This document shows positions 3,857 to 64,000 of a stretch of 64,000 nt of DNA, in pieces. The stretch lies in contig JALNZK010000003.1 of the NCBI GenBank assembly GCA_023229365.1, forward strand, positions 10,339-74,338. The letters run 5' to 3'. Under the pieces are notes generated by a model that saw only the letters and a list, made by a program, of their open reading frames with translations, ran no database searches and had not been told where the DNA came from. The position numbers were made by a program, and so were the translations under genes. Each line of letters starts with the position of its first letter. Within the stretch, counting starts at the first letter, position 1. This DNA is from Pseudomonadota bacterium. Its GTDB lineage: Bacteria; Myxococcota_A; Polyangia; JAAYKL01.

Positions 3857-4897
3857 CTAATTATGGTGCGCGGAAAGGGGAATTGTGCGAGTTCCCCGCC
3901 AAGTTACTTTTGTTAATATATTTAGGTCTTCTGACTTCGCAATTTTAGTAATCCGTTTTCCTGTTCTAACACTGTGTAGGGAAATTCTACCCTTATAACT
4001 TCCACCAATATAGGTTAATTTCCACTTAGGATGCCGAACCAAGGTTCCTCTGCTAAATCCCATTGATCGCGTCCCGCCTTGGGGTCTTCTAGTCCCTCCT
4101 TTTGTGAATTGAAACATATGTAATTGTCTTCTATTTAACACTATAGGTGTCCAATAGTTTAAATCTTTTGTGGTAGGTTGGCCTGCTCCGCAGATACTAG
4201 CAGCCATAACCCAAGCATCCACTGCATGAGATTCGAACACCTTCCTGGATTTAACGGAAGTTTTCTTCAGTCGGTACGTATCGCGGAGCATCTTAGTGTC
4301 GTAACCTCTAAATAATTCTAGCTTCAGCCGCATATCCCGAATTGTTTGGTAGAACCACGCTTTTCCCACTTCTAAAGGCGAGAAATTCACATTGAACTTT
4401 CGAGCCCCTTTCCTGGTCTTAGCCGCTATATCTTCCACGCAAACATCTGTGATAGGTAACACCCTCTTTATCTGTTTTAGTATTCGTACCTTGGAATTCC
4501 ATCTAGCTAGGGTCGAAGGCGGCAACCACTTTTTATTTCTATTTCGGTTAAATCTGGCGGGTCTTCTCCAACAGTTTCTATGCCTCCTAGATTTTCGTAG
4601 ATTACGGCGTCTCTCGACCGCGCCCTTAACGTGAATGGGCTCTTCCTGCATACCATTGAGTACCGTCTTATGTTGCCCTACCACGCTCCACCCGGTCCAC
4701 TTTGATCCAGGGTCAATACCAACTACTAACTTCTGGTTATCGGGTACGACCTCTTTGTGTAATATAATACAGAATATTCCTAATTTATTCCAGTAGGCGG
4801 ATGCCTTTCCGTTATCGAGCAGTTTCCTCGCGTGTGCCGGTGATGTAGGCATTAACGGAACCATTCTTGAATCTAATACGGGTATTTGTTGCGACAT
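3857..4897 (-). CDS. isrB: IsrB (HNH-less IscB-like, RuvC-only OMEGA nuclease/nickase)
   Basis: PLMP motif (RMVPLMPTSPAHARKLL); RuvC-I VVGIDPGSKWTGW; Arg-rich bridge helix RRRNLRKSRRHRNCWRRPARFNRNRNKKWLPPS; RuvC-II DVCVEDIA; RuvC-III ESHAVDAW. There is no HNH insert. Length is 346 aa. Confidence 0.85.
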   Translation of the reverse strand: MSQQIPVLDSRMVPLMPTSPAHARKLLDNGKASAYWNKLGIFCIILHKEVVPDNQKLVVGIDPGSKWTGWSVVGQHKTVLNGMQEEPIHVKGAVERRRNLRKSRRHRNCWRRPARFNRNRNKKWLPPSTLARWNSKVRILKQIKRVLPITDVCVEDIAAKTRKGARKFNVNFSPLEVGKAWFYQTIRDMRLKLELFRGYDTKMLRDTYRLKKTSVKSRKVFESHAVDAWVMAASICGAGQPTTKDLNYWTPIVLNRRQLHMFQFTKGGTRRPQGGTRSMGFSRGTLVRHPKWKLTYIGGSYKGRISLHSVRTGKRITKIAKSEDLNILTKVTWRGTRTIPLSAHHN

Positions 4898-5157: not shown

Positions 5158-8100
5158 TCCATTCCAAAACGTACCCTTTGCGGTCGCATTCCACTTTCCT
5201 CTAATAATCGATCCATACATAGGCAACAATCCTCCGCGGCTCATCATGGCTCCGTAGGTTATCTGACCTACATTATCCACGCATTCTATTGAGGAGAATG
5301 CGTTTCCAGCCTTGCTGGTCCCATAACTTATATTTGTTATCAAGAACTCTTTGGCCCCTAGTGTATCGAATCCACCTTCCAATCCTCTCAGTACATTCTT
5401 AGACATTTCATCTTCTACATTACCCATCCATAGTATTTGTAACTTTCCCTCTCTAACTTCTATATGGCCTCTGTTCATGTAATAGGGATTTAAACAAAAC
5501 ACCAAGGGATTCTTTTGTTCTCCCTTAACTATCGTGTCCACAATCTCTTTATGTCTCCTCGCAACTACCGCAGACAAATTTAATGTAACTCTCGACGTGC
5601 CGTCCTCAAAATTCAAAACATACGAAGTGTTCCCATTACTACTAAACGCCTTATGATCATAAACCCATCCAACAGACAATATTGCTTTGTTTTCTACGGA
5701 CTCAGACTTTAAGTAGTTTAAAGGCTTCCTATGTAAATCATATTGAGTTTTTGGCAGTTCATCATACGATCTAGGCCAGGGCAAGGACTTTCTGAGCCTA
5801 AACATCTTTTCCTCCTCAGACCAGTCGTCGCTTGTATTCGGTTCTGTAGACCACCTCCACAGCGTATTCCTAGTGAGTTCCTTTCCCCCTAATAATTGTT
5901 TGCGATTCTTCTCTACTGAATCTAAATAACCGACCTCTACGAGCGTTTGGTAAACATTCTTTTTAATTTTCTTTATCTTATCAAAGTCATCTCCAGCCGC
6001 CAAGACCTTTTTGATTTCTTCAGGTCCGATTCCTTTGACTTTGTTTAATCCTAAGTAAATAATATTTTTGTCTTTATTGAACGTAGTTAATTCTGATGGA
6101 GATTCTACGCTTGGAGGTTTGATTTCTACTCCAGAATCCATCGCTTCTTTTACAAAGGATAAAGACTGAGTTTCATCGGATTCTACGTTAATTAGAGAGG
6201 CATAGAAAGCTAGGGGATAATATAATTTTAACCATGCTGTCCAGTATCCTAGCATAGAATATTCAATAGAATGTGCTTCGTTGAAACTATAGCGTCCAAA
6301 TTCAAGAATTTTGTTGAATAAATTATCAAATTGTGGTTTTGTGAAGCCATTTGATAACGCGCCCCGGAGCATTTTATCTTCACTTTCTTTAAGCGCTTCT
6401 CGACCCTTTGACTTTGCCACCAGCTTCATTTCCCGCTCACTTTCCACCAAAGAGAAATTTCCAATTTGATGGTAGATTTGCATAATCTGTTCTTGATAAC
6501 AAATAATTCCATAGGTGTCCTTCGTGATCGACTCAAGTGTTGGATGATCGTAGTTCCACTCTTTTCCTCCCTTTCGATCTACATAATCAAATGACATCCC
6601 AGAGTTAAGAGGTCCTGGACGACACAAAGCATTCACGGCTACTAAGTCATTAAACTTGTCGGGATTTAGCTTCCTCAAATAGTCTGTCACTAATTGAGAA
6701 CCAAATTGGAATATTCCAGCGGTTTTACTTGACTTAAGAAGTTCAAATATTTTAGGATCAGCATAATCCTCTGGTAAAACATCCCATTCTAATCCAGAGG
6801 ATTTTAACGCTCCGTCGATGACATCTAGGACGGAGATTCCTAGGACATCGAACTTGATTATACCCAAACTTTCCAACATATCCTTTTCAAAACTTGCGGC
6901 GAGGCAATTTTTGATATCTCCTTTGTCATATATTTCTGTTGGGATAGTGCTTTCTAGATCCTTACAAATTACTACTCCTGCGGCATGAAGTCCTACGTGT
7001 CTAATTTTGCCTTTGAGTTTTATAGATGCATCTATTACTTGGGGGTACTTTTTCGCGAACTCTGCGGCGGTTTCTGAAGTAAGAATTATATCTTCGATTT
7101 TAAGGTTCTCTGCGGTCTTAGTGGAGAGTTCTTTGTTGAATTTATTTACCTCGGAAAGGGGAACGTCATAAATTCTGGCTACATCCTTAATTGCGGATTT
7201 ATCAGACCACTCGTTAAACGTCATAATATAGGACACGTTGGTTGGTCCATATTTGAGCCTGAGACTTCCAATTATACTTCCCCTTTTCTCGGCGCTGAAA
7301 TCCATATCAATATCAGGAGTCCGTGTAGGTGAAAGGAATCTCTCCCATAAAGTATTAAATCTTAGTGGATCGACTCGTGTAATTTTTAATAAATATGCAA
7401 GTAGAGAACCGCCAACCGATCCTCTTCCTGGACCCCTTGGAATATTATGGGAATCTGCGTAGTCTGTCATATGCATAACTTTATCAAAATAATTAAAAAA
7501 TTTTCTAGATGTAAGGAGATCTATTTCTTTTGTTATTCTTTCGTTTACTATTTGTGGATCATATCCGTTCTTTTTGGTATAACCTTCAACATCTATTCTA
7601 TCTAAAATCTTTTGTCGGGCTTTCTCTTCATTTCCAGGCAAAGTATCCCCTAGATTTGACGGTAATTCAAAAGTGCATTTGCTAGCTACCTCTAAAGTAT
7701 TAGCAAATAACTCTTCTCTTATGGGGTATATTTTTGGGTGATTCGATTTCAACAAGGACTCTATTTGGTCGCAAGTTAAATTACAAAATGTGTCATCAGA
7801 GAACCCAATTTTATCTGTAATCTTTTTTCTCCATTCGTTCGCTTTTACGAGATCGTGATAATGTTTATCCTCTGGAGAGTTGTAGTGGGAGTCGGTAGTG
7901 ATTATTGGTTTAATATTATACTTTCTTGCTATATTAATTATATATTCATTAAATCTTATTTGTTCCTCCATTCGATTCGGCATTAGTTCCATATAAAGAT
8001 CTTCTCCGAACGCCGCTTGAAGTTTTTGTATTATAGGCTCAGGATCATCTCCTCTTTTCCATCTTTGGGCTACCGTTCCACTAATACATGCGGTGCTACA

Positions 8101-57409: not shown

Positions 57410-59818
57410 ATGGTCTCTCTTATTCAACAATATATAGACAAAGGTTGGGGCATTATCCCCATTCGGCCCAAAGGACATATAAATGAAAAAACAGGGGAGT
57501 CGGATGAAAAAGCACCCTTTGTCACCTGGGGAGGCTATAAAAGTAGTAATGGGCATAAACCTGATGAAGACCAAATTCTTCAGTGGTTATCTCAATTTGA
57601 TCGCGCAGACTGGGCCGTGCTAACAGGTTATGATAATCTTGTTTTAGTAGACATAGACGACCCCAATCTTTATGATCTCTATCTTTCTGATTTTAAAAAG
57701 TGTTTAATGAGAACCCCATCTGGCGGGATGTCTTTTCTTATTAGGAGTACGGTAGTTCCTAAATTTCATGCCCGTATAAATGGAGTCGCCGTAGATATTA
57801 AAGGTATAGATGGGTATGCCATTCTTCCGTCTCGCGACTTGAGTCAAGAAGAAATAGATCTGGAAGAGAAAGAAGAAAAAGAAGGGACCAAAAGAGATTT
57901 TATACGTCATTGGATTAACTCTGAAGAGCCAGAAGAAATAGAAGACATCTATAGACACCTTGAATCGGTGTTACCTCTCATTAAGCCGGATGTTAAACCG
58001 GGAAAAGGAATTCCTACTGCTCTGGCATGGGCAAGAGAACATAATTTACAAATTGCTTATGATGGTGGAAGATATATCCAAGTTTTGTGCCCCCACCATG
58101 AGGATACAAAACCATCAATGAGTATATATGCAGATGGATATTTTTGTCACAGCTGCCGGGCAACGGGTGGGTTGTTTTCTCTCATTAAATCTTTCAGTAA
58201 TAAAACCGACGATGAGATCTATGCCGATTTTCCAGGGATTAAAAAGCAAAAGAAGACAATAACAGATAATGTAATAGAAATCGTGGGGAACAACGTATCA
58301 TTAGTAAAGGATCAAAACAATAACAGCTACTTCAAACTTCACGACTATTCTGAAATAGGAATAAATCTATTACCAATTACTTCTAAGATCACAAAATATT
58401 GGATTGCAACCACCGCAGAAAAAGTTATAGATAAGCTCCCATCTGAAAGCGTTTTATCCTATGTAATAAAATATTATGATGGAAAATGTATGGCTACCGG
58501 AGAAAAAGCAAAAATATTCCGCCGAGTGGGAGGGGATCTAGCTGGAAAGGTGGTCTGGTATGATCTCGGAAATAACAATTTTGTAAAAATAACACCTGAT
58601 GGGATTGGGGTATATCCTTACTCAGATGTTACTTTTATTAGAGAAACCAATCAAGGGACTCAGAATGTTCCAACAAAGAAAAATATTAAAAGTATCTTTA
58701 AGTTATTTAATATCATAAACGTAAAAGACGAGGCACAAAAAGTTTTACTTCTAACGTGGATAGTCAACTCGTTACTTCCCTGGGCTCAGAGTCCCATTCT
58801 TCTGTTGTGTGGTACTCGAGGTTCGGGAAAATCTTTTATGGGACGTATAATTAAAAGAACTCTAGATCCCGTGGAAGGAAACGCATCTGAGCTATTGGTA
58901 AACAAACCGCAGGATTTAAATTATTTAATAGGATTACTTTCGCATAACGCCGTTGCTGTTTTAGATAACATCAGCAGAATTGATAGAGCTACGGGTGACG
59001 TACTATGTAACGTGGTTACTGGTGGTGTAATTTCTACTAGGGAATTGTATACCACCAATGATCAAATATTAATTGATATCCGTTCAAAATTAATTATTAC
59101 AGCCATCAATTCTCAAATATTTGATACCGGAGCAGGAGATCTCGCGGAAAGGACCGTAAGCATAGAAATTTCCAGACCTGAATCAAATTATTTATCCGAA
59201 GAATGGCTAAATGAGGAATTTGAAACCTATAGGAGCGAAATATTTGGTGCGATCCTTGAACTCATACGCGGATACCTACAGAAAGGAATTCCCAGAAAGG
59301 GCGAGGTATCCGAATTTAGACTGACTACGTTTGCTTCCGTAGGGCGCTATATTTCAGACGTACTAGGATTAAAACCTAGCTTTGATGTCGCTTACAGACT
59401 GAGCCAGGCTGGAATGTGCCAGACCTCATTGGAAGCAGAACCCGTTACTGAATTCTTTGTTGATTTCGTAAGAAAATATGGAGGCGTAGACTTCAACAAC
59501 AATTCAGGATGGGGTATTTCTTCGGATGTATTATTCGGTAAATATTTCAACCAATGGATGATAGAAAACAATAGCGGTGGCATGGACAAAAAGTTACCTG
59601 CAACATCAAGCTCTCTATTAAATAGATTAAAGAGAATAGAACCTGATCTAAAGAGAATCTACTCAATTGTTATTGAGCCCCAAGGAGTCCATAGAGGAAA
59701 GAAGTGGTACAGGTTGTATTGTAAGGACCTTGAAATGCTTAACGAGGGAGCAGAGGAAGAGATCTTGGAGAAACAAACATCTATCGAGAAAGATAGTAAC
59801 GAGGAAGCGGGATGGTAA
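57410..59818 (+). CDS. Prim-Pol / CHC2 zinc-finger / SF3 (D5-like) primase-helicase
   Basis: GWGIIPIRPK ... VLVDIDD (Prim-Pol); CPHHEDTKPSMSIY..GYFCHSC (CHC2); Walker A CGTRGSGKS. Confidence 0.8.
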   Translation: MVSLIQQYIDKGWGIIPIRPKGHINEKTGESDEKAPFVTWGGYKSSNGHKPDEDQILQWLSQFDRADWAVLTGYDNLVLVDIDDPNLYDLYLSDFKKCLMRTPSGGMSFLIRSTVVPKFHARINGVAVDIKGIDGYAILPSRDLSQEEIDLEEKEEKEGTKRDFIRHWINSEEPEEIEDIYRHLESVLPLIKPDVKPGKGIPTALAWAREHNLQIAYDGGRYIQVLCPHHEDTKPSMSIYADGYFCHSCRATGGLFSLIKSFSNKTDDEIYADFPGIKKQKKTITDNVIEIVGNNVSLVKDQNNNSYFKLHDYSEIGINLLPITSKITKYWIATTAEKVIDKLPSESVLSYVIKYYDGKCMATGEKAKIFRRVGGDLAGKVVWYDLGNNNFVKITPDGIGVYPYSDVTFIRETNQGTQNVPTKKNIKSIFKLFNIINVKDEAQKVLLLTWIVNSLLPWAQSPILLLCGTRGSGKSFMGRIIKRTLDPVEGNASELLVNKPQDLNYLIGLLSHNAVAVLDNISRIDRATGDVLCNVVTGGVISTRELYTTNDQILIDIRSKLIITAINSQIFDTGAGDLAERTVSIEISRPESNYLSEEWLNEEFETYRSEIFGAILELIRGYLQKGIPRKGEVSEFRLTTFASVGRYISDVLGLKPSFDVAYRLSQAGMCQTSLEAEPVTEFFVDFVRKYGGVDFNNNSGWGISSDVLFGKYFNQWMIENNSGGMDKKLPATSSSLLNRLKRIEPDLKRIYSIVIEPQGVHRGKKWYRLYCKDLEMLNEGAEEEILEKQTSIEKDSNEEAGW

Positions 59819-60060
59819 ATAAATGTATTTGGTGCGGCTCGGAGGATACGTACTTCGAGCAAGATACGCATAATAAAACAACTAAGGATGGAACGGATTA
59901 CGGAGTCTTTATTTGTAACAACTGCCATCAAATTCAATTTTGGTTTTTTAAGATTAAAGGAGGAGTTAATGTTGCAAACGGAAAACTTACCATAAAACAT
60001 AAGGAACCAAAAATTGTTTTTATAAATCAATGGGATGGTCCAGTAACTCAATTTCTTTAG
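59812..60060 (+). CDS. small zinc-ribbon protein (82 aa)
   Basis: CIWCGS ... CNNCH. Confidence 0.5.
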   Translation: MVNKCIWCGSEDTYFEQDTHNKTTKDGTDYGVFICNNCHQIQFWFFKIKGGVNVANGKLTIKHKEPKIVFINQWDGPVTQFL

Positions 60061-60224
60061 AATCACATAGAGCAATCCTCAAAATTAACTGGAAGACCCA
60101 TAGATACTTACTATACACATATTATTATTAAAAACGCGAAAGAAATGTTTGCGAGAAGATTAGATTTTACTGAAGTAATCGACGCTTTTAATAAAAAGGT
60201 TTTGAAGGAAATCGCGGAGGAGAG

Positions 60225-60428
60225 ATGATCACTAAAGAAGAGACAAAAATTGTTGCCTCCTTGGCACCAATTACAGAAGAATTTTTAAGGGAAAATGTTA
60301 CAGATATGAGTGAGGCGTGTTTCCTGGCGGCAATGGCGACTATGGGATTCCACAAAAGCGTGATGATAGAATTACTCGAAAAATATAATAGGTTATTCCT
60401 TTATGCAATACAAAGGCGTTATCCTTAA
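60225..60428 (+). CDS. hypothetical protein (67 aa)
   Basis: ORF track; plus-strand block. Confidence 0.45.
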   Translation: MITKEETKIVASLAPITEEFLRENVTDMSEACFLAAMATMGFHKSVMIELLEKYNRLFLYAIQRRYP

Positions 60429-60453
60429 GTAGGATTAAGTAGTGGTTAGAGGT

Positions 60454-60588
60454 ATGATATTCGAACCTGGGGATTCCGACGAGTTAGACTTTGCGATGGA
60501 CGTTGTGGGCGAAAGCGTAGGCGATCCTGAGCCAACAATGGCAGTTCTAAGGCGCTTGAGAGATGCAGCAAAAATGGAGGGATATTAG
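60454..60588 (+). CDS. small acidic protein (44 aa)
   Basis: Hand translation: MIFEPGDSDELDFAMDVVGESVGDPEPTMAVLRRLRDAAKMEGY. The stop abuts the next ATG. Confidence 0.35.
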   Translation: MIFEPGDSDELDFAMDVVGESVGDPEPTMAVLRRLRDAAKMEGY

Positions 60589-60834
60589 ATGGAAGAAGAT
60601 GTTATTATAGGGGAAGACGATTGGGCTCCAATCCCACCAATCCGAAGTTACAAAATGGTAATGGTCCCGCCAGAGAAATATGCGACGCTAAAATCTATTA
60701 CCGAAGAAATTGTTAATAGAAGTTGGTTCTCGGCGGACTGGCCGATGGAATGTAAAATATGCGGAGAGGTTTATCCGAACCATTATGAGTTTTGTTTAGT
60801 GTTAAAGGCTAAGAAGGTATTGGAGGAGGTATGA
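60589..60834 (+). CDS. hypothetical protein (81 aa)
   Basis: ORF track; plus-strand block. Confidence 0.45.
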   Translation: MEEDVIIGEDDWAPIPPIRSYKMVMVPPEKYATLKSITEEIVNRSWFSADWPMECKICGEVYPNHYEFCLVLKAKKVLEEV

Positions 60835-60955
60835 AGAAATGTTTGATCTATTATCATGGGTGTTGGGGGTTGCGCTTGGTGTGTGCGGCACGTATTTTGT
60901 CATCGCAGGTCGGAGATGAATTGAAATAATCTCGCGCCTATAATTAAGCGAAACC

Positions 60956-60969
60956 TTTAAATACTATTA
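60956..60969 (+). promoter_or_regulatory. TTTAAATACTATTA box upstream of tnpB
   Basis: Same family as the viral intergenic boxes; 22 nt before ATG 60992. Confidence 0.45.
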
Positions 60970-60991
60970 CAGCATAAATCAAACTACTTCT

Positions 60992-62149
60992 ATGAAGAAA
61001 TCCTATAAATTTCGGGTGTTTCCAACTAAGGCTCAACAACATCTCTTAGAAGAAACTCTCGATCTTTGTAGGTGGACCTACAATCAAACCTTGGCCTACA
61101 GAAAGAACATGTGGGAATCAGAGAAAAAGAACGTTTCTAAGTACGATTCCCATCTTTTGCTTCCAACATGGAAGGCTGAAAGGCCAGAGTTGAAAGGCGT
61201 ATTTTCTCAGGTTCTACAAAACGCCCAAGAAAGGATTGACCTCGCTTTTAAGGCTTTCTTTAGACGAGTCAAAAACCATGAAAATCCTGGATATCCTAGA
61301 TTTAAAGGAAAGGGGAACTATGACTCGTTTACGTACCCTCAAAGCGGATTCTCTGTAAAGGATAACAAAACTCTTTACCTCTCCAAAATCGGAGATGTCA
61401 AGATAAAGATTCATAGAGAAATTGAGGGCCAAATAAAAAGGTTGACCGTCCTTAGAACCATACGGAACAAATGGTATGTTACGTTCTCCGTAGAACAAGA
61501 AACTATATTCATACCTTCTGATAACGGTCCAGTAATCGGAATTGATCTTGGGTTAGAAAGCTTTTTAACATTCTCAGATGGCAGCAAGGTTGATAATCCA
61601 AGGTTCTTCCGATCTGAAGAACATTTATTGGCTAAGAAACAGAGTCGAAGAGACAAACTCCCTAAAGGCTCCGTAGAAAGGAAGAAAACAACAAGGGTTA
61701 TCCAGAGAATTCATGAGAGAATAACCAATAAACGTTCTAATTTTGCCCATCAACTCAGTCATAAATTAGTAACAAAATATTCTGTAGTTTGCTTAGAAGA
61801 TCTTAATATAAAATCAATGCTCAGAGATGGAACACGCGGACTGTCTAAGTCTATCTCAGACGCTTCTTGGAATCTTCTACTCCGATTAATTTCCTACAAG
61901 GCTGAAAGTGCCGGTTCGAAAGCGATCTTTGTAGATCCTCGAAATACGTCTCAGATGTGTTCTTTCTGCGGAGCGATGGTTCCGAAGCAGTTAAAGGACC
62001 GAATCCATAAATGCCCATTCTGCGGCTTAGAAATGGACCGAGACAAAAACGCTGCTATAAATATACTCAGATTGGGATTACAATCTGTCGGTAAAACCGA
62101 TCTTAGATCGGAAGTCCGTAGAAGCCCCATCTTTCAGGATGGGGAATGA
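60992..62149 (+). CDS. tnpB: TnpB (IS200/IS605-IS1341 family RuvC RNA-guided nuclease)
   Basis: N-terminus YKFRVFPTKAQQHLL; RuvC D IGIDLG; E VCLEDLN; zinc finger CSFCG..CPFCG; D DRDKNAAINI. Confidence 0.9.
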   Translation: MKKSYKFRVFPTKAQQHLLEETLDLCRWTYNQTLAYRKNMWESEKKNVSKYDSHLLLPTWKAERPELKGVFSQVLQNAQERIDLAFKAFFRRVKNHENPGYPRFKGKGNYDSFTYPQSGFSVKDNKTLYLSKIGDVKIKIHREIEGQIKRLTVLRTIRNKWYVTFSVEQETIFIPSDNGPVIGIDLGLESFLTFSDGSKVDNPRFFRSEEHLLAKKQSRRDKLPKGSVERKKTTRVIQRIHERITNKRSNFAHQLSHKLVTKYSVVCLEDLNIKSMLRDGTRGLSKSISDASWNLLLRLISYKAESAGSKAIFVDPRNTSQMCSFCGAMVPKQLKDRIHKCPFCGLEMDRDKNAAINILRLGLQSVGKTDLRSEVRRSPIFQDGE

Positions 62150-62150
62150 T
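62040..62150 (+). ncRNA. candidate TnpB omega/reRNA scaffold (3' portion; 5' boundary unknown)
   Basis: Two perfect hairpins inside the last 55 nt of tnpB: CCGATC-TTA-GATCGG (62097-62111) and CCCCATC-TTTCAG-GATGGGG (62125-62144). The second ends 3 nt before the stop codon. Confidence 0.35.
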
Positions 62151-62358
62151 CACGAACCCAGATTTATTACCAGATGATATTATTTCCGACCTATGTAACA
62201 ATCTCGGAATCGACCCAGGAGATGACAAAAGTTCTAAAATCATAGAAGAAATGACTCCAGATCAAGTACTTAAATGCGTCTGTAATTGGAACGGATTGAT
62301 AGGATATTCTCAGAAAATAAAATATTGGGTTGATAGCATTTATCAGAGGGGAGTTTAA
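62146..62358 (+). CDS. hypothetical protein (70 aa)
   Basis: The ATG overlaps the tnpB stop (ATGA). Confidence 0.45.
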   Translation: MITNPDLLPDDIISDLCNNLGIDPGDDKSSKIIEEMTPDQVLKCVCNWNGLIGYSQKIKYWVDSIYQRGV

Positions 62359-62359
62359 T

Positions 62360-62497
62360 TTGATCTATTGTGAATCCTGCGGGTACTCTGAAGATAGACC
62401 GCTCTATAATTTAAAAATATGGTGTTCCTTATGGAAGATTTCTGTATGTCCGGAAGATACAGACTGCGGAAGCGGGATACCAAAAGGGGAATAATCT
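62360..62497 (+). CDS. small Cys-rich protein (45 aa, TTG start)
   Basis: Hand translation: (M)IYCESCGYSEDRPLYNLKIWCSLWKISVCPEDTDCG... SD GGGGAG upstream. Confidence 0.35.
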
Positions 62498-62519
62498 TTT
62501 TTTAAAAGGGGAGATTTGA

Positions 62520-62972
62520 TTGGTAAATAAAATAAAGATCACTATTACATCAATAGACAGAGAGCCTTCTTTTTTGGTAGATGAGTATACCTCATCTAGA
62601 GAGATAGAGGAATATATTAAAAATAGATATGGGGCTCAGGCACCTCCCAAGAAAGGTATGCAGGCTAAGAAACATGAGTGGATTTCTCAAAAGTCCGAGA
62701 GGACTAGAGATAACAGCCTATATCTAGAAGAAGAGATTTCACAATTAAGAGAGCAGATCGCGCTACAGGAAAGGGAAGAAAAGAGATTAAAACAAGCAAT
62801 TAAAAACCTGAATAAATGTCTAGTGCAGGCCCACACAAAGATATACTACATAGATAGGACACAAAACATCAATTGGTTAGATAACGTTCCATCTAAAGAA
62901 GACATAAAATCAGCAAAGTTGAAAACAGAAGAGATTCTAATTAGACTGAAATTGGAAGACATAGAAAAATAA
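62520..62972 (+). CDS. coiled-coil protein (150 aa)
   Basis: ORF track; last plus-strand gene before the convergent junction. Confidence 0.5.
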   Translation: MVNKIKITITSIDREPSFLVDEYTSSREIEEYIKNRYGAQAPPKKGMQAKKHEWISQKSERTRDNSLYLEEEISQLREQIALQEREEKRLKQAIKNLNKCLVQAHTKIYYIDRTQNINWLDNVPSKEDIKSAKLKTEEILIRLKLEDIEK

Positions 62973-63092
62973 TATTTTTTTTAAATCCTGCGAGGTCGGA
63001 AAATCTCCTGCGGATGTTTTTGGGTCCGTATTAGGGGCTGTTTAAATTTATAAATTTTAATTAAAATAGTATGTTTTTTTTAAATGGTTTAT

Positions 63093-63392
63093 TTATAACG
63101 ATTGTTCATAATTTCCCAGACTTTTATTCTTCCTCTTCTTTATTTCTAAAGAATATTCCTTTTTTCTCCTTAGAATATCGTCCTTTATAGATGCTTCTAA
63201 TCCGTTTAAGAGGTGAAGCAAGTACTGACTAGGAAGAGTCTTCGCGACTTCGGGTAGGTCGATAAATAGTCTACTATATTGAGATATTAGACGAACCCTG
63301 TCATTTGGATGCCTATTGGGGACACTAAATTCTTCTTCAAAGTAAAGTAGCTCACCTACTGGATCTAATAAAAAAGAATCTTTAATTTGCAT
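63093..63392 (-). CDS. hypothetical protein (99 aa)
   Basis: ORF track. Confidence 0.45.
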   Translation of the reverse strand: MQIKDSFLLDPVGELLYFEEEFSVPNRHPNDRVRLISQYSRLFIDLPEVAKTLPSQYLLHLLNGLEASIKDDILRRKKEYSLEIKKRKNKSLGNYEQSL

Positions 63393-63694
63393 TATTCCTT
63401 CTCCCCTTTAATCTTCTTTTCAATCATTTCTATCTCTGCCGAATTTGCAGCGCCAAGAGTGTCATGTAGAAATTCATTAATACTCAGGGCCGCATTATAA
63501 TCTATAAGTGCATTTTTCTTATAAGTCGGATCTTTAAGGACTTCTGAGATCTCAATACCATAATCCGCTCTATTGACACATGCCACGGAATATTCCTTTA
63601 AAATGTTTATAGCTGTCCTCTTGTGAGATTGAACATTGCTATCATACTCCTCTTTGGCACTAAATATTGCGTCTTTTACCATTTCAAGAGCCAT
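63392..63694 (-). CDS. hypothetical protein (100 aa)
   Basis: ORF track; 1-nt overlap downstream. Confidence 0.45.
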   Translation of the reverse strand: MALEMVKDAIFSAKEEYDSNVQSHKRTAINILKEYSVACVNRADYGIEISEVLKDPTYKKNALIDYNAALSINEFLHDTLGAANSAEIEMIEKKIKGEKE

Positions 63695-63698
63695 AGGT

Positions 63699-63932
63699 TT
63701 AGTCCTCCTTTATTGTAACATATTTTATATCTTTAACGCCCCAGCTAAGATGCTCGTATACTTCAATTATATCCCGATAAATCCATATTCGAGTCCCATC
63801 TTGTCTCATTCTTTCCGTTGTTATTCTGGTTGCACCATCTCTTAAGAGGTGATAATAATCTCTAGAATCTACAAGGCTCCATTTTTCATCACTCATTTTA
63901 ATCACTTCCAATTGAATATAGCCTTGCATCAT
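63699..63932 (-). CDS. hypothetical protein (77 aa)
   Basis: ORF track. Confidence 0.45.
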   Translation of the reverse strand: MMQGYIQLEVIKMSDEKWSLVDSRDYYHLLRDGATRITTERMRQDGTRIWIYRDIIEVYEHLSWGVKDIKYVTIKED

Positions 63933-64000
63933 CAGGTTTCTTTAGTCTGTTCCCGTCTTTATCATAAAATCCCTCCAGATCTAATCCGACAACCGCATCA
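63932..64000 (-). CDS. C-terminal fragment of a gene entering from beyond the window end
   Basis: The TGA at 63934-63932 overlaps the next ATG (ATGA). The frame is open to 64000. Confidence 0.35.

Follow-up and report, generated by a model that had tools for sequence, protein, structure and literature searches.

The window, by which we mean the whole stretch of 64 000 nucleotides analysed here (positions 1-64000 = G000:C137:10339-74338), carries near its right-hand end a tnpB gene that is preceded by a promoter-like box, overlaps a small viral gene downstream, and contains in its 3′ end what is predicted to be the scaffold of an omega-RNA (Table 1). The original prediction for this locus, made from the letters of the DNA alone, had described a solo TnpB wired into the viral operon structure and lacking the signs of a mobile insertion sequence (IS). 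The features on which it was built, namely the box at 60956-60969, the ATGA at 62146-62149 in which the tnpB stop codon and the downstream start codon overlap, and hairpins at 62097-62111 and 62125-62144, all lie where it had placed them. Their reading has changed: the segment from about 60907 to 62153 is probably a TnpB-only (IS1341-type) insertion of the IS200/IS605 family, from a lineage otherwise found mainly in methanogens and their viruses, which entered the start codon of a viral gene, whose left end is damaged, and for which homing would be the remaining activity. The comparisons reported below show its family, its ends, the conservation of its RNA fold and its insertion site, and show that it lacks both a TnpA and a complete left end.

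Table 1. Features of the TnpB element and of other genes in the window (^ marks a junction between element and flank, here and in the text).
Feature	Position	Strand	Remarks
Left-end remnant	60907-60945	+	3′ arm of the left-end hairpin (AGGTCGGAG), followed by GATGAATTGAAATAAT and a spacer; by alignment to intact left ends of relatives
Promoter-like box	60946-60969	+	AAGCGAAA (BRE-like), TTTAAATA (TATA-like), CTATTA; 22 nt before ATG
tnpB, 385 aa	60992-62149	+	D185/E269/D351 triad, CxxC...CxxC zinc finger
Omega-RNA scaffold, conserved 3′ part	62039-62153	+	Inside the reading frame save the last 4 nt; match of covariance model R1
Helix A	62068-62087 (62068-62074 / 62081-62087)	+	CAGATTG / CAATCTG, loop GGATTA; compensatory changes
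Closing helix, 3 bp	62089-62118 (62089-62091 / 62116-62118)	+	CGG/CCG; encloses variable hairpin 62097-62111
Terminal hairpin	62125-62144	+	8-bp stem, UUCA loop; right-end subterminal hairpin and last stem of the omega-RNA
Right-end terminus TCAC	62150-62153	+	Flanks part directly afterwards in L002, L003, L017, L020, L027 and about 40 distant members
Predicted 16-nt guide	62154-62169	+	GAACCCAGATTTATTA; codons 3-8 of the downstream viral gene; by the ISDra2 rule
Downstream viral gene, 70 aa	62146-62358	+	Start and next two codons (ATG ATC AC) from the right end of the IS
UDG-PHP-DnaE fusion, 1328 aa	5152-9138	-	Uracil-DNA glycosylase (UDG), PHP and bacterial-type DnaE (Pol III alpha)
RRXRR protein, 346 aa	3857-4897	-	RRXRR (IscB/IsrB N-terminal) is the only Pfam domain; no HNH match

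The TnpB protein matches the Pfam families HTH_OrfB_IS605 (PF12323), OrfB_IS605 (PF01385) and Cas12f1-like_TNB (PF07282), and aligns over residues 3-371 with ISDra2 TnpB (8BF8/8EXA/8H1J; E about 3e-52), with which it shares both the D/E/D triad and the zinc finger. In this alignment the motifs GIDLG, CLEDL and DRDKN match ISDra2 D191, E278 and D361, so that the catalytic residues fall at the positions given in Table 1, and the zinc-finger cysteines are C323, C326, C341 and C344. The split RuvC site (D-E-D) and the zinc ribbon expected of an IS1341-type TnpB are both present, in agreement with the intact triad and finger originally noted. A nuclease-dead, domesticated (TldR-like) protein was considered and ruled out, as all three RuvC catalytic residues are kept. 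The overall ratio of non-synonymous to synonymous substitution rates (dN/dS) against relatives is 0.08-0.15, and the protein is therefore under purifying selection. To judge from its sequence, this TnpB looks catalytically intact, as had been noted originally together with the suggestion that it is probably active.

Copies of the element and its right end

To place the element among its relatives, the part of the window from 55 to 64 kb was compared by blastn with loci fetched by way of the TnpB protein. Similarity of 77-87% at the DNA level was found to L002/L006, L003/L007/L133, L017, L020 and L027; it was limited to the segment from 60906 or 60946 to 62153, the flanks being unrelated, and copies of the element were found in at least five unrelated contexts. 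On the right, the similarity ends in all copies after ...GGGGA(G/A)T(G/A)ATCAC, which is window position 62153, 4 nt beyond the tnpB stop, and a contig from run X4 loses its likeness at the same base. The terminus, (G)AGNNNTCAC^, is kept in some 40 less closely related members, among them sets of copies within one genome or metagenome whose flanks part right after it, and one Methanothermococcus chromosome holds three copies with the conserved terminus. The right end is made up of the subterminal hairpin and the 9 nt that follow it, ending in TCAC. The unrelated contexts, a right end exact to the base, and the left-end hairpin and TTTAT of relatives (see below) overturn the claim that signs of a mobile IS are lacking here. 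Relatives with clear ends at other loci largely make this the ordinary IS that the original prediction had set against itself, though one without a TnpA.

Two further copies lie close to relatives of this virus. L027 is a related virus (74-75% DNA identity in the primase region, L027:1-3753) whose TnpB copy is inverted relative to that of the window and immediately follows the orthologue of open reading frame (ORF) 62330-62494 of the window. In L131 a copy lies downstream of the orthologue of the neighbouring 70-aa gene, about 0.8 kb away; the element has therefore been inserted repeatedly in this virus group. A scan of viral contigs with the right-end pattern for further copies returned only contexts already known, and no other right-end-like ends were found on C137, the contig that contains the window; this genome has a single copy of the element.

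Two side observations concern the surroundings of such copies. L027 has two unrelated genes in place of the window's IS and 70-aa gene, the neighbourhood being a mosaic hot spot. In one metagenome contig, L036, two omega-RNA-like matches lie within 2.7 kb of each other, at 4039-4136 (+) and 6696-6791 (-), so that either another element or a right end on its own sits nearby.

The promoter-like box had originally been assigned to the same family as the viral intergenic promoters. Its core, TTTAAATACTATTA at 60956-60969, does resemble boxes found 17-36 nt upstream of several viral genes, and the box family is mildly enriched in the window (36 matches with up to three mismatches versus 23 +/- 4.3 expected). 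However, the order AAGCGAAACC-TTTAAATA-CTATTA is kept within the element in all contexts (L003, L020, L021, L008, L002, L017), and because it is conserved inside the element across unrelated surroundings, the box is the element's own promoter and not the virus's. We infer that the likeness between the element's box and the viral boxes reflects a shared archaeal consensus of the BRE (B-recognition element)/TATA type and not viral wiring.

A predicted RNA scaffold within the tnpB reading frame

That the 3′ scaffold of an omega-RNA, together with the right-end hairpin, lies within the end of the tnpB ORF was part of the original prediction, and it gained support from covariation, from the stability of the fold and from a covariance model. 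When the final 200 nt of 28 elements were aligned by structure, three consensus helices were found in the last ~95 nt, and compensatory double changes occur in 16 of the 18 consensus pairs. Helix A accounts for six compensatory pairs out of seven in this alignment, and for all seven across 67 sequences. Some relatives have the insert within the closing helix, others lack it or have one of different sequence, whereas the pairs that close it show covariation; in the window copy the variable insert is the hairpin 62097-62111, with a stem of 6 bp. The fold of the window's 200 nt has a z of -2.97. A covariance model built from the last ~100 nt (R1) matches the window once, over the interval in Table 1 (93.9 bits, E 1.4e-19), the match ending at the right-end terminus, and also matches tnpB 3′ ends at 70 other places, many of them outside the set used to build it. 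Across 67 distinct sequences, 94.4% of cells pair, as opposed to 63.4% when shuffled and 30-47% with slid partners, and the covariation score is 0.555 versus 0.145 for shuffled alignments (0/500 shuffles reach it), although the fitting of this alignment to the R1 model favours the pairing and covariation figures somewhat.

G-U pairs on the + strand speak for a structure of RNA and not only of single-stranded DNA. Substitutions in the coding sequence agree: over the last 45 codons of tnpB, dS is 0.27 versus 0.63 elsewhere in the closest relative (L002), and dN/dS is 0.29-0.43 versus 0.06-0.13, being raised in all four close relatives, a pattern that fits an overlapping constraint from the RNA. 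No Rfam family, HgcC (RF00062) included, reached its gathering score in the window, and only chance-level matches (E up to 10) were returned for 60800-62400.

Similar RNAs are known from archaea, in which IS1341-type tnpB genes give rise to sense-overlapping 3′ RNAs (sotRNAs) with an 'RE-like UUCA tetraloop' (Gomes-Filho et al., 2015; PMC4615843). The window element is like these in being TnpB-only, in having its RNA overlap the 3′ end of the ORF, and in the 8-bp stem with UUCA loop just before the stop that doubles as the right-end hairpin. It is unlike them in that it resides in a viral genome, its left-end hairpin is truncated and its right end supplies the start of the next gene; its RNA, moreover, is a predicted one.

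The best-described relative is ISDra2 of Deinococcus radiodurans, for which the complex of TnpB with its right-end RNA (reRNA), the target motif (TAM) and the cleavage of the donor joint have been reported (Karvelis et al., 2021; PMC8612924). As in ISDra2, the RNA predicted here would come from the tnpB 3′ end and the right end, followed by about 16 nt of flank (the length with which the ISDra2 reRNA ends; PMC8612924), and a 5-nt TAM would lie 5′ of the left end. The two differ in that ISDra2 has a TnpA and the TAM TTGAT, whereas the window element has no TnpA and an apparent TAM of TTTAT; in addition, the right end of the window element extends only 4 nt past the stop, so that its conserved scaffold is nearly all coding. 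The guide had originally been taken to be the first ~16 nt or so of the neighbouring viral ORF, which agrees with our prediction save for its first base: since the element ends at 62153, the guide would start at 62154 rather than at 62150. A second TAM-flanked guide match was not found on C137, and self-targeting is therefore not expected.

This conservation bears on whether the insertion might be an inert relic, that is, a decaying dead insertion whose TnpB and RNA are functionless. Such a view would accommodate a damaged left end, the lack of a transposase and the presence of one copy in the genome. Yet the 385-aa ORF is intact with all of its catalytic and zinc-binding residues, its dN/dS is low throughout the comparison with relatives (0.08-0.15), and the RNA helices are perfect in the window copy, with a score of 93.9 bits that is typical of the family. 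We therefore regard a dead relic as quite improbable.

The insertion site, the left end and proposed homing

The 70-aa ORF downstream of tnpB is a real viral gene that has been conserved. Five homologues (P0123-P0127, 66-73% identity) start MNPDLLPDDIISD... (MNPDLL), where the window protein starts MITNPDLL, and the IS-free loci L129, L130 and L131 read ...AT^GAAYCCAGA..., with the ATG overlapping the stop of whichever gene lies upstream. From these starts and IS-free loci it follows that the element entered between the AT and the G of the start codon, as would suit a target that ends in AT. An in-frame ATG that overlaps the tnpB stop is now provided by the right end (ATG ATC AC^G), the sequence supplying it being ATGATCAC, and the viral gene persists with two additional residues. 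Close relatives have GTGATCAC at this place; the G>A change in the window leaves the TnpB residue unaltered (GAG>GAA) and makes an ATG out of the GTG. The link to the next viral gene that was originally read as wiring into the operon is real, as the ATGA overlap attests, but it is a consequence of insertion into a start codon.

Two relatives interrupt genes in a comparable manner. In both L002 and L017 the downstream part of the interrupted gene is in frame with the GTG of the right end, so that all three same-orientation intragenic insertions (window, L002, L017) are in frame, for which the chance is about 1/27; this is suggestive, but three cases are too few for a claim. One might go further and suppose that the right end of this IS subfamily is built to spare the genes it interrupts, by offering GTGA or ATGA plus TCAC at TTT-AT^N and thereby re-initiation through coupling, and that loss of the left end would then leave the virus a non-polar, immobile TnpB/omega-RNA module for RNA-guided homing into, or marker exclusion of, relatives without it; we consider this doubtful.

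Intact left ends were found in L002, L017, L021 and L023-25, where the order is TTTTAT^CT, about 20 nt, a GC-rich hairpin GAAGACCCC...GGGG, ATGAA..., about 30 nt, the TATA-like box and the ATG. The hairpin closely resembles that of the right end and has GGGGATGAA right after it, and the flanks differ upstream of TTTAT. These relatives, as aligned, display the classical IS200/IS605 layout, with TTTAT as the apparent TAM. When the flanks of L002 are joined at TTTAT^ and TCAC^, an uninterrupted NT5C frame results (...WLNDRFI^HNKVIF...LIDD...), and joining those of L017 likewise yields a continuous ORF. In L002 itself (L002:5469-7268, on an IMG/VR contig of 69 kb), the IS splits this viral NT5C (5′-nucleotidase) gene into parts of 119 aa and 75 aa, and the 3′ part starts at the right end's GTG.

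The window copy does not share this left end. Similarity by blastn begins at 60906 (L002) or 60912 (L017), and from about 60907 (AGGTCGGAGATGAATTGAAATAAT...) only the 3′ arm of the hairpin and what follows it remain, the 5′ arm and the terminus being missing or replaced; no stem can form. The original prediction had seen no obvious left-end hairpin, and indeed no complete one is present, the 3′ arm alone being left. It had also seen no TnpA, and none is encoded on the 145-kb C137: a Y1 TnpA (PF01797) was found neither there nor in three complete genomes of viruses harbouring relatives. Elements of the IS1341-type subgroup need no TnpA. The alignment with relatives that had been suggested as a means of defining the ends and the TAM delivered the right end at 62153 and the relatives' TTTAT; in the window, however, the right junction fits the AT^G of the start codon, whereas the junction on the left has been lost, and the searches for an empty allele of the same virus found none.

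These observations also bear on whether the copy could still be an ordinary mobile IS, recently inserted and excisable in trans by a host TnpA, in which case excision would join TTTAT to GAACCCAGA. A complete right end, the clear mobility of the family and the multi-copy cellular relatives would all suit such an element, but TnpA needs subterminal hairpins at both ends, as established for IS608 and ISDra2 (PMC8612924), and here neither the 5′ arm of the left-end hairpin nor the left terminus could be found. Because the 5′ arm is gone and there is no TnpA, the window copy is probably no longer excisable, and we hold continued mobility to be the least probable of the readings considered. The copy derives from the IS1341-type family of IS200/IS605 elements and is structurally incomplete; most likely, as its sequence suggests, it is a TnpB-only element with a crippled left end that can no longer be excised.

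A short left end without a hairpin (TTTAT^CC...), suggested by L003 and L020, was rejected, as the stretch aligns with an internal AAATAAT segment of copies that have the full left end. It is a possibility that a 23-codon upstream ORF once ended in the ATGA of the downstream gene and that TTTTGT at 60895-60900 is a mutated TAM; the frames fit, but no relative supports it. Two overlapping putative short ORFs, 60832-60930 and 60840-60920, reach from the stop codon of ORF 60589-60834 as far as the left-end remnant and stop inside it, at the TGA of GGAGATGA (60918-60920) and at a TAA (60928-60930); the start of one of the two overlaps the gene upstream in an ATGA.

Taken as a TnpB-only insertion with a damaged left end, the element would work through four parts: a TATA-type promoter of its own, an intact tnpB, an omega-RNA or reRNA scaffold in the 3′ end of the ORF, and a right end at TCAC. 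The family would insert 3′ of TTTAT, and the window copy would have entered the AT^G of a small viral gene translationally coupled to the gene upstream. For the nuclease, the cleavage and the homing we draw on ISDra2 and related work (PMC8612924, PMC10055086, PMC13565253). TnpB made from the element's own promoter may bind an RNA ending in the guide GAACCCAGAUUUAUUA, and the complex would cut TTTAT directly followed by a match to the guide, a combination that marks the allele of this viral locus without the IS. Where a cell contains many viral genomes, or a relative co-infects it, the cut genome would acquire the element through repair by recombination. The outcome would be selfish homing, possibly with marker exclusion, the damage to the left end leaving only the homing half of the life cycle. 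Homing by TnpB and IscB transposons has been described (Meers et al., 2023; PMC10055086), as has 'non-restorative homing' into co-infecting phages (reviewed in PMC13565253); the role that we propose is like these in that an element-free allele defined by TAM and guide would be cut and recombination would copy the element in, and unlike them in that the left end is damaged and homing alone would remain.

Alternatively, the virus may have domesticated the nuclease, so that a fixed, immobile TnpB/omega-RNA module in the operon cuts competing IS-free relatives or some other programmed target. The destroyed left-end hairpin and the absence of TnpA, the strong purifying selection on TnpB, the element's own promoter together with translational coupling to the next viral gene, the synonymous GAG>GAA change that makes the right end's GTG an ATG for that gene, and the high depth of the virus, insertion included, in a landfill metagenome would all be at home in this scenario. 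Against it, the predicted guide is plain flank as in any IS, with no array or retargeted guide, and the architecture is that of copies with an intact left end. The element is also sporadic at the site, L129 and L130 being without it and L027 and L131 having copies at other positions or in another orientation, and the left end may have been lost only after the protein had come under selection. We find domestication unlikely; like each of the other alternatives, it fits the data less well than a TnpB-only insertion that homes.

Several points nonetheless weigh against this interpretation. An IS-free allele of this virus was not found: an exact search of viral contigs for the guide region and a pattern search of them with the downstream protein returned nothing, and no contig of X1 or X2 joins across the element, so the empty site had to be rebuilt from homologues that are ~70% identical. 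The bases before the ATG in those homologues are AATAT, AAGAT and ACCAT rather than TTTAT; the TAM TTTAT comes from six relatives, and the window site reads TTTTGT at best, with a left boundary that cannot be fixed. None of the runs recorded as RNA holds the stretch, which leaves the omega-RNA and the expression of TnpB as predictions, and X4 and X11, guessed to be RNA runs, hold only diverged relatives and are probably DNA. An archaeal host, taken up below, is circumstantial; the contig sits, through mis-binning, in a bacterial bin with 64% GC. Finally, homing in viruses is a published concept (PMC13565253), yet undemonstrated for an element of this kind.

The virus, its probable host and the place of the element

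C137 has a length of 145,414 bp and a GC content of 38.5%, whereas the enclosing bin of 6.2 Mb has 64% GC, on which ground the contig is foreign and viral; its place in a bacterial metagenome-assembled genome (MAG) is due to mis-binning. It encodes a UDG-PHP-DnaE polymerase, NrdD, an SNF2 helicase, a ligase, methyltransferases, a primase-helicase and an RRXRR (IsrB-like) protein. The last is the IsrB of the original prediction, which had credited the virus with a second OMEGA effector; the RRXRR protein was found in the window as described, and the virus has two OMEGA-type elements. Logan contigs put C137 in groundwater and landfill metagenomes, with a high word depth in the landfill run.

The host of this virus is probably a methanogen, on circumstantial evidence from sequence matches. 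Among 50,697 phage records, the polymerase has its top match in Methanobacterium virus PhiF1 (33.8% identity over 72%), with Streptomyces phages ranking behind, and TnpB has its own in Caudoviricetes sp. vir525, whose recorded host is Methanosarcinales. Cellular TnpB homologues with 60-63% identity are overwhelmingly from Methanothrix and Methanotrichaceae. TATA-like boxes upstream of genes over the whole contig (26/191 versus ~16 expected from the overall density of the motif) are too weak a signal to settle the domain of the host. The region 59000-64000 gave no match by megablast to the same phage records, and a tRNA scan of the window found none. An exact repeat of 127 nt occurs on C137 at 1-127 and, outside the window, at 143105-143231; it was rejected as a clean terminal repeat. 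Its second copy lies 2.3 kb before the contig end, and the repeat may have arisen through assembly overlap, the genome being circular or terminally redundant.

Because 442 phage records carry TnpB genes, for example those of Thermus phages, Clostridium phage c-st and vir525, a virus-borne tnpB is not unusual in itself. The window gene is like these in being a virus-borne solo tnpB of the kind annotated as a transposase; unlike them, it is only 54.5% identical to the nearest record, and the ends, TAM and RNA of its lineage are defined here. The only unusual features are the insertion into a start codon, the ATG supplied by the right end and the truncated left end.

The understanding of how TnpB systems work is unchanged by this element. 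What is gained is the definition of a TnpB lineage of methanogens and their viruses, with its ends, an apparent TAM of TTTAT, a conserved RNA core of ~95 nt and the position of the guide, which could serve in the development of compact genome editors. The element also adds to the circumstantial evidence for an archaeal virus as the source of the 145-kb contig, misplaced in a bacterial MAG during binning. For the biology of the virus, the locus offers a clean example of a selfish element inside a tightly packed viral operon in which the interrupted gene was not destroyed.

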